Source: a virus
Reading direction: 5' to 3' (one strand)
IMG/VR virus record: IMGVR_UViG_2912844605_000003
Length of the DNA: 64,000 nt
In this document: in pieces, positions 35,151 through 35,385 of the stretch
Position numbering within the stretch: the first letter of the stretch is position 1
Layout: every line of letters begins with the position of its first letter
Made by a program: the position numbers and the translations under genes
The notes under the pieces: generated by a model
Databases searched by the model: none
What the model saw: only the letters and a program-made list of their open reading frames with translations
Told to the model about the DNA's origin: nothing

Positions 35151-35385
35151 AATGCGGACTCAATATATTGATTACGATGACGTGCGTGAAAAAGCCCTCG
35201 CTCATAAACCGAAGCTTATCGTAGCAGGAGCAAGCTTTTAACTAGAATTCTGTGGCGAAAAAGGTAATCGCGTAGATCGAGGTGGTATGACTGACCTTCG
35301 GGAATCTCGAGGCCAACCTTCAAGAGAAGACTAATAGTTGGTGAATTGTCATCCATGAGAGGTGCAAATCCTCTCCCGCATTTCA
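35151..35385 (+). ncRNA. Candidate tRNA-like structured RNA interrupted by, or carrying, a glyA fragment
   Basis: AATGCGG (35151-57) pairs with CCGCATT (35376-82); T-arm-like GAGAGG-TGCAAAT-CCTCTC (35357-75); D-arm-like TGGCG-AAAAAGGTAA-TCGC (35253-71). No canonical anticodon arm. Confidence 0.5.
35158..35235 (+). other. 78-bp fragment of host glyA (serine hydroxymethyltransferase)
   Basis: Translates TQYIDYDDVREKALAHKPKLIVAGAS, which matches the B. subtilis GlyA internal sequence as I recall it; no start codon; flanked by CTAGAAT copies. Confidence 0.85.

Follow-up and report, generated by a model that had tools for sequence, protein, structure and literature searches.

A candidate family of tRNA-Leu-like phage RNAs with a variable structured core in place of the anticodon arm, represented by a glyA-interrupted copy in an SPbeta-like Bacillus prophage

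The element at positions 35151-35385 of an SPbeta-like Bacillus prophage is, as judged from its pattern of conservation and covariation, a copy of a real RNA gene in which a tRNA-Leu-like shell encloses a very variable structured core. Its motifs go beyond chance because the shell recurs in 91 distinct sequences with covariation and the core helices covary in 12 SPbeta-type copies. We somewhat favour the reading of the locus as an anticodon-less, tRNA-Leu-derived phage RNA whose shell would be a handle and whose variable core would be the effector, the allele studied here being interrupted by a piece of the host gene glyA. The sequence family is missing from Rfam 15 and unannotated in the five GenBank phage records inspected. 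The literature searched held no description of a Firmicutes phage family of this kind, and the gene names yonN and yonK led only to unrelated papers.

The window (the whole stretch of 64,000 nucleotides that was analysed) is an SPbeta-like prophage, and its gene order in the yonO/yonN/yonK region agrees with the annotations of SPbetaL4, BUCT083, BUCT082, phi3T and Goe11. The element lies at the start of the yonN-yonK spacer; it begins 27 nt past the end of yonN, and a terminator scan found no terminator-like site between the two. All of the motifs listed in the preliminary description were recovered where it had placed them: the perfect 7-bp stem AATGCGG/CCGCATT, the T-arm-like hairpin GAGAGG-TGCAAAT-CCTCTC, the Leu-type D-arm segment from 35251 (TG, followed by U8 G9 and GCG/CGC), the ~85 nt between the D and T arms with TCGAG/CTCGA, ATGAC/GTCAT and CCAAC/GTTGG around CTTC/GAAG, and a 3' end that does not encode CCA. 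The window copy has the GG in its D loop and the UGCAAAU T loop that the family requires. The features are as follows.

32077-34584: yonO-like ORF (from the ORF list).
34848..35123, + strand: gene of a yonN-like HU family DNA-binding protein, 91 aa (from the ORF list; the homologues in BUCT083, phi3T and Goe11 are annotated as such).
35140..35157, + strand: first copy of an 18-nt repeat, CTTTTCCCTAGAATGCGG, identical to the single copy of SPbetaL4.
35151-35157, + strand: intact 5' strand of the acceptor stem, AATGCGG, the last 7 nt of the first repeat.
35158..35234, + strand: inserted 77-nt glyA fragment in sense orientation, encoding TQYIDYDDVREKALAHKPKLIVAGAS (77/77 identity to host glyA).
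35235..35252, + strand: second, diverged copy of the 18-nt repeat, CTTTTAACTAGAATTCTG.
35246-35252, + strand: degenerate 5' strand of the acceptor stem, AATTCTG, the last 7 nt of the second repeat, with 5/7 pairs (R1 and R2 alignments, see below).
35253..35271, + strand: U8 G9 and the Leu-type D arm (GCG 35255-57, loop AAAAAGGTAAT 35258-68, CGC 35269-71).
35272..35356, + strand: 85-nt core, located where a tRNA has its anticodon and variable arms.
35277-81 with 35306-10, + strand: core helix Pa (TCGAG/CTCGA), two compensated pairs.
35282-91 with 35348-56, + strand: core helix Pc, 9 bp, GUGG-U-AUGAC/GUCAU-CCAU, three compensated pairs.
35295-35302, + strand: CC-UUCG-GG hairpin.
35312-35342, + strand: nested hairpin Pd/Pe, with one compensated pair in Pd (CCAAC/GTTGG).
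35357..35375, + strand: T arm with a 6-bp stem, GAGAGG/CCTCTC, and the loop TGCAAAT at 35363-69.
35376..35382, + strand: 3' strand of the acceptor stem, CCGCATT, with no CCA after it.
36878: start of the yonK/yonJ-like ORFs (from the ORF list).

The spacer that follows yonN (35124-36877) is 1.75 kb long and ORF-poor, and probably contains more RNA elements; a DUF3800-VIII RNA motif (RF03075, 49.3 bits) lies in it at 36408-36473 (+) and is also found in SPbetaL4 (L001 3709-3774) and in one further locus (L067). The SR6 antitoxin RNA (RF02892, 128 bits) at 29000-29103 (+) marks the SPbeta yonT/SR6 toxin-antitoxin locus. In the window yonO (32077-34584) is one ORF of 835 aa; that of SPbetaL4, BUCT083 and Goe11 is interrupted by a 300-aa ORF, annotated in BUCT083 as a GIY-YIG nuclease, and in phi3T two separate yonO-like ORFs are annotated with no ORF intervening.

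The region was aligned with the corresponding regions of the same five SPbeta-like phages. SPbetaL4, BUCT083, BUCT082 and phi3T carry a compact gene of ~137 nt, in which AATGCGG is followed directly by TGGCG...CGC and which consists of a 7-bp acceptor stem, U8 G9, a 3-bp D stem with an 11-nt GG-containing loop, the core, a 6-bp T stem with a TGCAAAT loop, and the 3' strand of the acceptor stem. The window has 95 extra nt (35158-35252) between acceptor nucleotide 7 and U8. SPbeta proper and Goe11 have no element at all, with breakpoints within a few bases of the element ends, which indicates an accessory gene that comes and goes as a whole.

A scan of IMG/VR with a 26-nt pattern of the 5' shell yielded 75 contigs with 66 distinct sequences. 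Every match ends with ...AUG-NNNNGG-UGCAAAU-CCNNNN-CCGCAU(U/A), and the enclosed cores measure from 27 to 176 nt. A covariance model (R1) was built on 32 of these, and a second model (R2) was also built. Among 151 genomes related to the nearest Bacillus genome, R1 found 13 strong matches in 12; among 151 sampled across the phylum it found matches in 2, a sporadic spread that fits prophage cargo. These genome matches, on which the pattern imposed nothing, covary in the acceptor stem (AATACGG/CCGTATT, GATGTGG/CCACATC, ATCACAG/CTGTGAT, GGCGGGG/CCCCGCC) as well as in the D stem (GTG/CAC, ACG/CGT, TCC/GGA). Family members score 54-95 bits with R1, and the only other matches of the model are genuine tRNA-Leu genes at 29-34 bits, which argues that the shell is derived from tRNA-Leu. 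A covariance model of phage homologues had been suggested in the preliminary description as a check on the element, and what it detects is both conservation and covariation across relatives.

Altogether 91 distinct copies were gathered from phage contigs and Bacillales genomes. Compensatory changes are found in 15 of the 16 shell pairs, in an alignment that was fitted to the model and so favours its structure. Paired cells amount to 97.2% of this alignment, compared with 37-55% when the 3' partners are slid, and neither shuffles nor slid registers approach the observed shell pairing. Five of the six T-stem pairs covary across the family, and the T loop is nearly invariant. Conservation is strongest in the D loop, the T loop and the nucleotides of tertiary contacts: U8, A14, A15, G19, U54, A58 and the U that precedes the T stem are present in all 91 copies, G18 in 88/91 and C56 in 87/91. 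Position 55 of the T loop is G in 90/91. The nucleotide that follows the acceptor stem varies (T 48, A 29, C 23, G 6), and CCA is encoded in only one of 106 matches. The compensatory changes, found in all three shell helices, include many G-U pairs, strand-specific pairs that would read A-C on the opposite strand.

Established detectors are silent on the element. ARAGORN called no tRNA or tmRNA gene in the window and none at intact family copies, and Rfam 15, searched at the gathering threshold and at E up to 10, gave no match of a family of any kind at 35151-35385 and none at intact copies; both programs had been named earlier as checks to run. A canonical tRNA was rejected, given the lack of a cloverleaf with an anticodon arm and the negative results of ARAGORN and RF00005 (E up to 10). 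Rejected, too, was a tRNA-Leu interrupted by a group I intron: no intron family matched, and cores of 27-176 nt are without anticodon-stem halves. In comparison with class II tRNA-Leu (RF00005), the element shares the 3-bp D stem with its 11-nt loop GAAUAGGUAGA, U8, A14, A15-U48, G18G19, C56, the T arm and the acceptor stem, but differs by its 6-bp T stem and G55 and by the lack of an anticodon arm, of a conserved A73 and of CCA.

In the core, Pa and Pc cross, and the core is therefore a pseudoknot, of H type, with hairpins within its loops. In the 12 copies with this SPbeta-type core 98.8% of cells are paired, the compensatory changes coming from only two related sequences; a competing hairpin that is favoured by minimum-free-energy folding is broken in those two. 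The 85-nt core of the window is identical to that of SPbetaL4. The phi3T-type core is of unrelated sequence, its helices being kept through 12 compensated pairs. A 2x2 comparison, in which each of two phage backgrounds occurs with either the 85-nt core or a 27-nt stub, indicates that cores move as cassettes inside a constant shell. Some loci hold 2-4 paralogues with different cores. On one viral contig four family copies, all with different cores, lie within 1.6 kb (L065 3910-5487), and at another locus two copies with different cores are only 10 nt apart (L018 7602-7811). The original idea of a tRNA mimic with a structured core in the place of the anticodon arm is upheld.

The same description had also considered a tmRNA-like RNA. 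Like the element, tmRNA (RF00023) has a tRNA-like acceptor/T domain around a large pseudoknotted insert, and tmRNA genes of phages occur near family copies (L069, L075). The element is unlike tmRNA in its D stem, in the absence of G3-U70 and of a conserved tag reading frame, and in a core of only 27-176 nt, and both the tmRNA model and ARAGORN are negative on it; the element is not tmRNA-like. A 15-codon ATG frame with a double stop in the SPbeta-type core was considered as tmRNA-like coding and discarded; the substitutions are compensatory, not synonymous, and the frame shifts in L047. The role of a decoy for T-box riboswitches, likewise raised before, is unlikely because the RNA has no anticodon.

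A tRNA gene is found no more than 300 nt away from 15 of the 91 distinct copies, and in all 15 cases gene and copy share one strand. Eight copies are within 20 nt of a tRNA, with spacers of 1-9 nt, the typical spacing of tRNA arrays. The element was earlier thought to be a site that RNase P and RNase Z could process, and the location of its relatives within tRNA arrays, with these short spacers and on the tRNA strand, places it where tRNA-processing enzymes would act. Some of the arrays are shared with phage tmRNA genes and CUA-anticodon (amber suppressor-type) tRNAs (L069 3749-4079, L075 3227-3665, L031, L070). In a partner search, the ORFs within 4 kb of 94 loci were clustered and representatives were scanned with Pfam and PHROGs; no universal neighbour protein emerged among these 94 loci. 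HU is found upstream of the element only in SPbeta-likes, and integrase, terminase and HNH only in subsets; in other phages the element is just upstream of packaging genes, and in 10 loci an integrase-like ORF lies ~1.1 kb away. The neighbourhoods examined contained neither a defence system linked to the gene nor an aminoacyl-tRNA-dependent transferase. In a second Bacillus prophage background (L030, L047, L054, L059, L089) the element is followed by a conserved 3' flank with a hairpin, ATCCGATAGCGACGTCGGAYTCTCCGCCGGTGGGGACG, which may be another RNA or a recombination site; a different conserved 3' flank, AAATAGACTTGCCCGCGCCTCTGATTCAAGCG..., follows it in tRNA-array phages (L029, L037, L042, L049, L077).

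The 95-nt insertion of the window, absent from SPbetaL4, BUCT083, BUCT082 and phi3T, is composed of 77 nt of glyA, the host serine hydroxymethyltransferase gene, and the diverged 18-nt duplicate. The glyA piece matches the nearest Bacillus genome compared (G001:C1:3789923-3789999) at 77/77 positions, in sense orientation and in frame. Microhomology was found at neither glyA junction, and neither junction occurs in another carrier in IMG/VR or in the GTDB representative genomes. SPbetaL4 has the same first repeat; the five substitutions that distinguish the window from it are confined to 34 nt on the right side of the insert, and none occurs in the next 114 nt. The capture of a 77-nt stretch of host glyA, along with an 18-nt duplication, would have broken the gene between nucleotides 7 and 8, probably in the course of break repair. 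The preliminary description pictured the processing of the tRNA-like fold as a release of a glyA-bearing RNA, which is not the arrangement found: within the RNA itself the glyA piece separates nucleotide 7 from nucleotide 8, and it is a private insertion of this genome and no part of the family's design. A 29-codon ORF at 35152-35241 (+) starts with the ATG within AATGCGG, continues in frame through the glyA piece and ends with TAA; it is probably fortuitous, since no Shine-Dalgarno sequence precedes it. The right junction (35232-35250) creates an AAGCTT (HindIII) site, and a clustered substitution creates GAATTC (EcoRI) 7 nt later. These sites were considered as a mark of engineering and judged a coincidence: both fall to one side of the insert, and CTAGAAT is a native context. 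They would deserve a second look were the strain to have a laboratory history.

How far this copy is still functional was assessed by model scores and predicted folding. Positions 35246-35382 score 57.7 bits with R1 (E 6e-13), compared to 80.1 bits for SPbetaL4, and 76.3 bits with R2, both as full-length shell matches. Both models align the proximal, degenerate strand, with two non-pairs: this contiguous acceptor strand pairs 5/7, and the perfect strand sits 95 nt upstream across the glyA insert. In the predicted fold, it is the distal perfect strand that closes the acceptor stem (probability 0.81-0.98), the proximal degenerate strand having a probability of 0, and the D stem of the window copy is predicted with a probability of only 0.04, down from 0.41. 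One of the substitutions, A to T at 35268, changes the last base of the D loop, which is A in 90/91 family copies. On account of the predicted folding, this mutated near-invariant D-loop base and the lower model score we lean modestly towards an impaired window allele. Closure of the acceptor stem by the distal intact 5' strand is still conceivable, so that the interrupted allele may keep its function. The earlier thought of a decayed tRNA hence holds in part for this copy, which is interrupted and mutated, but not for the family, which is conserved, covarying and multi-copy.

Our best guess from the comparison of sequences is a tRNA-processed scaffold that would present an effector module. 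We propose that, by virtue of the shell, RNase P, RNase Z and the CCA-adding enzyme would act on the transcript, so that the RNA would be cut from the yonN transcript, or from tRNA arrays in other phages, and would accumulate as a stable L-shaped RNA. The shell would serve as the handle, and the variable core as the effector binding a host or phage factor. A bolder version, which we regard as rather improbable, is a modular phage RNA platform in which a constant tRNA-shaped handle, matured and stabilised by host tRNA enzymes, would carry interchangeable pseudoknot cartridges, each aimed at a different host factor, for example in counter-defence. If that were true, the glyA-bearing allele would be a snapshot of the capture of foreign sequence into the scaffold.

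The existence of a 27-nt stub core implies that the shell alone may be the functional part. The main rival to the scaffold reading takes the shell itself as the effector, i.e. as a decoy or sponge that would occupy a host factor recognising the elbow or the acceptor end of tRNA (a tRNA-directed immune nuclease or toxin, or an enzyme that modifies or processes tRNA), the core needing only to fold stably. We consider it possible, though on the unlikely side. The stub and the peak of conservation in the D loop, T loop and tertiary nucleotides are in its favour, as is the near-invariant G55 (90/91), which a mere scaffold would not need and which hints at a specific partner. The accessory nature of the gene, absent from SPbeta and Goe11, also agrees with a decoy, and phage tRNA arrays have been discussed as counter-defence (PMC13096335), which we count for it. 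Cores that keep their folds via compensatory changes, and paralogues with different cores, would be unexpected if the core were irrelevant, and the absence of a linked defence system from the neighbourhoods examined is a further point against it.

A second alternative confines the tRNA-like fold to a cis-acting processing signal that recruits RNase P/RNase Z to separate the yonN transcript from the downstream RNA, the excised RNA being idle. The position of the element 27 nt past yonN with no terminator-like site between them, and its position just upstream of packaging genes in other phages, conform to this. We nevertheless judge it improbable: copies within tRNA arrays need no added cleavage site, and neither covarying structured cores nor multiple paralogues would be necessary for such a signal.

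The RNA might also be leucylated by LeuRS without decoding, and would then donate leucine or sequester LeuRS or EF-Tu. Leucylation in Aquifex does not need the anticodon arm, whose deletion lowers affinity only 2.5-fold, and A73 and G18-U55 are critical (PMC2377443). The shell keeps U8-A14, A15-U48 and G18G19/C56; of the LeuRS identity set, U8, A14, G18G19 and C56 are retained. A73 and U55 are not conserved, the nucleotide past the acceptor stem being variable and position 55 being G in 90/91. For this reason leucylation is doubtful, and no aminoacyl-tRNA-dependent transferase was seen nearby; we give it little credence.

A decayed, functionless tRNA-Leu pseudogene would account for the failure of ARAGORN and of the Rfam tRNA model on the element and for the interrupted and mutated state of the window copy, but is very improbable in view of 91 distinct copies with a conserved shell, covariation in 15/16 pairs, structured cores, strand-specific G-U pairs and an orientation that is always that of the neighbouring tRNAs. 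Equally improbable is that the unit is no RNA gene and acts at the level of DNA, for example as an integrase att site, a hotspot of recombination or a miniature mobile element: the precise presence or absence of the whole unit among SPbeta-like phages, the swapping of cores as cassettes, the integrase-like ORF at ~1.1 kb in 10 loci and ends that are inverted repeats would suit it, but the three shell helices show compensatory changes including many G-U pairs (A-C on the other strand), tRNA tertiary nucleotides are conserved, and the orientation in arrays is tRNA-like, all of which fits an RNA; the conserved shell alone can explain recombination.

By analogy, the closest known counterparts of the putative scaffold are RNA1/RNA2 of phage T5 and RNAC/RNAD of phage T4. 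The T5 RNAs are annotated (GenBank AY543070, misc_RNA) as 'tRNA-like stable RNA with unknown functions'. T5 RNA1 resembles the family in its location in a phage tRNA cluster, on the tRNA strand, and in the order of its parts, where an acceptor-like stem and UG are followed by a Leu-type D arm (CCG-GAAUUGGUAGA-CGG), ~80 nt of core and a T arm. It is the best match of R1 and R2 in the T5 tRNA region, above T5 tRNA-Leu, at weak scores of 20.7 bits (E 5e-4) and 19.9 bits, in contrast to the 54-95 bits of family members, and the likeness is one of architecture, with no established homology. Its T loop is UUCAACU in place of UGCAAAU, its acceptor sequence and core are unrelated, and its host is Gram-negative. 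T4 RNAC/RNAD (species 1 and 2) are small stable RNAs encoded where the tRNA cluster of T4 ends, in the orientation of the tRNAs, and the literature still assigns them no role (PMC3014915, PMC9697503). A canonical T arm forms the end of RNAC. As members of the family both were rejected, as R1 found no match apart from a 4-bit T-arm fragment and no Leu-type D arm was seen.

Two further systems are comparable in principle. In the engineered tRNA scaffold of Ponchon and Dardel (2007), the anticodon arm is reportedly swapped for an arbitrary structured RNA and the tRNA body provides processing and stability; it is a synthetic tool, and the analogy is one of mechanism, not of family. The gene of the other, YrlA, is linked to rsr, and the ends of this RNA form a Ro-binding stem rather than an acceptor stem. 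YrlA is a bacterial Y-RNA-like non-coding RNA with a tRNA-mimicking module, and some examples are phage-encoded (PMC4201824).

Stable tRNA-like RNAs with no known function, such as T4 RNAC/RNAD and T5 RNA1/RNA2, have been known from phage tRNA clusters for about fifty years. The kind of RNA is thus old, and the sequence family is one that is absent from Rfam 15 and from the literature searched. The family described here, of this kind and defined by sequence, is widely distributed: phages of Bacillus and other Firmicutes carry it, and it occurs in viromes of gut and rumen. SPbeta-like phages lend themselves to genetics and exist in natural forms with the compact gene, without the gene and, as in the window, with an interrupted gene, which makes the question of its function directly testable.
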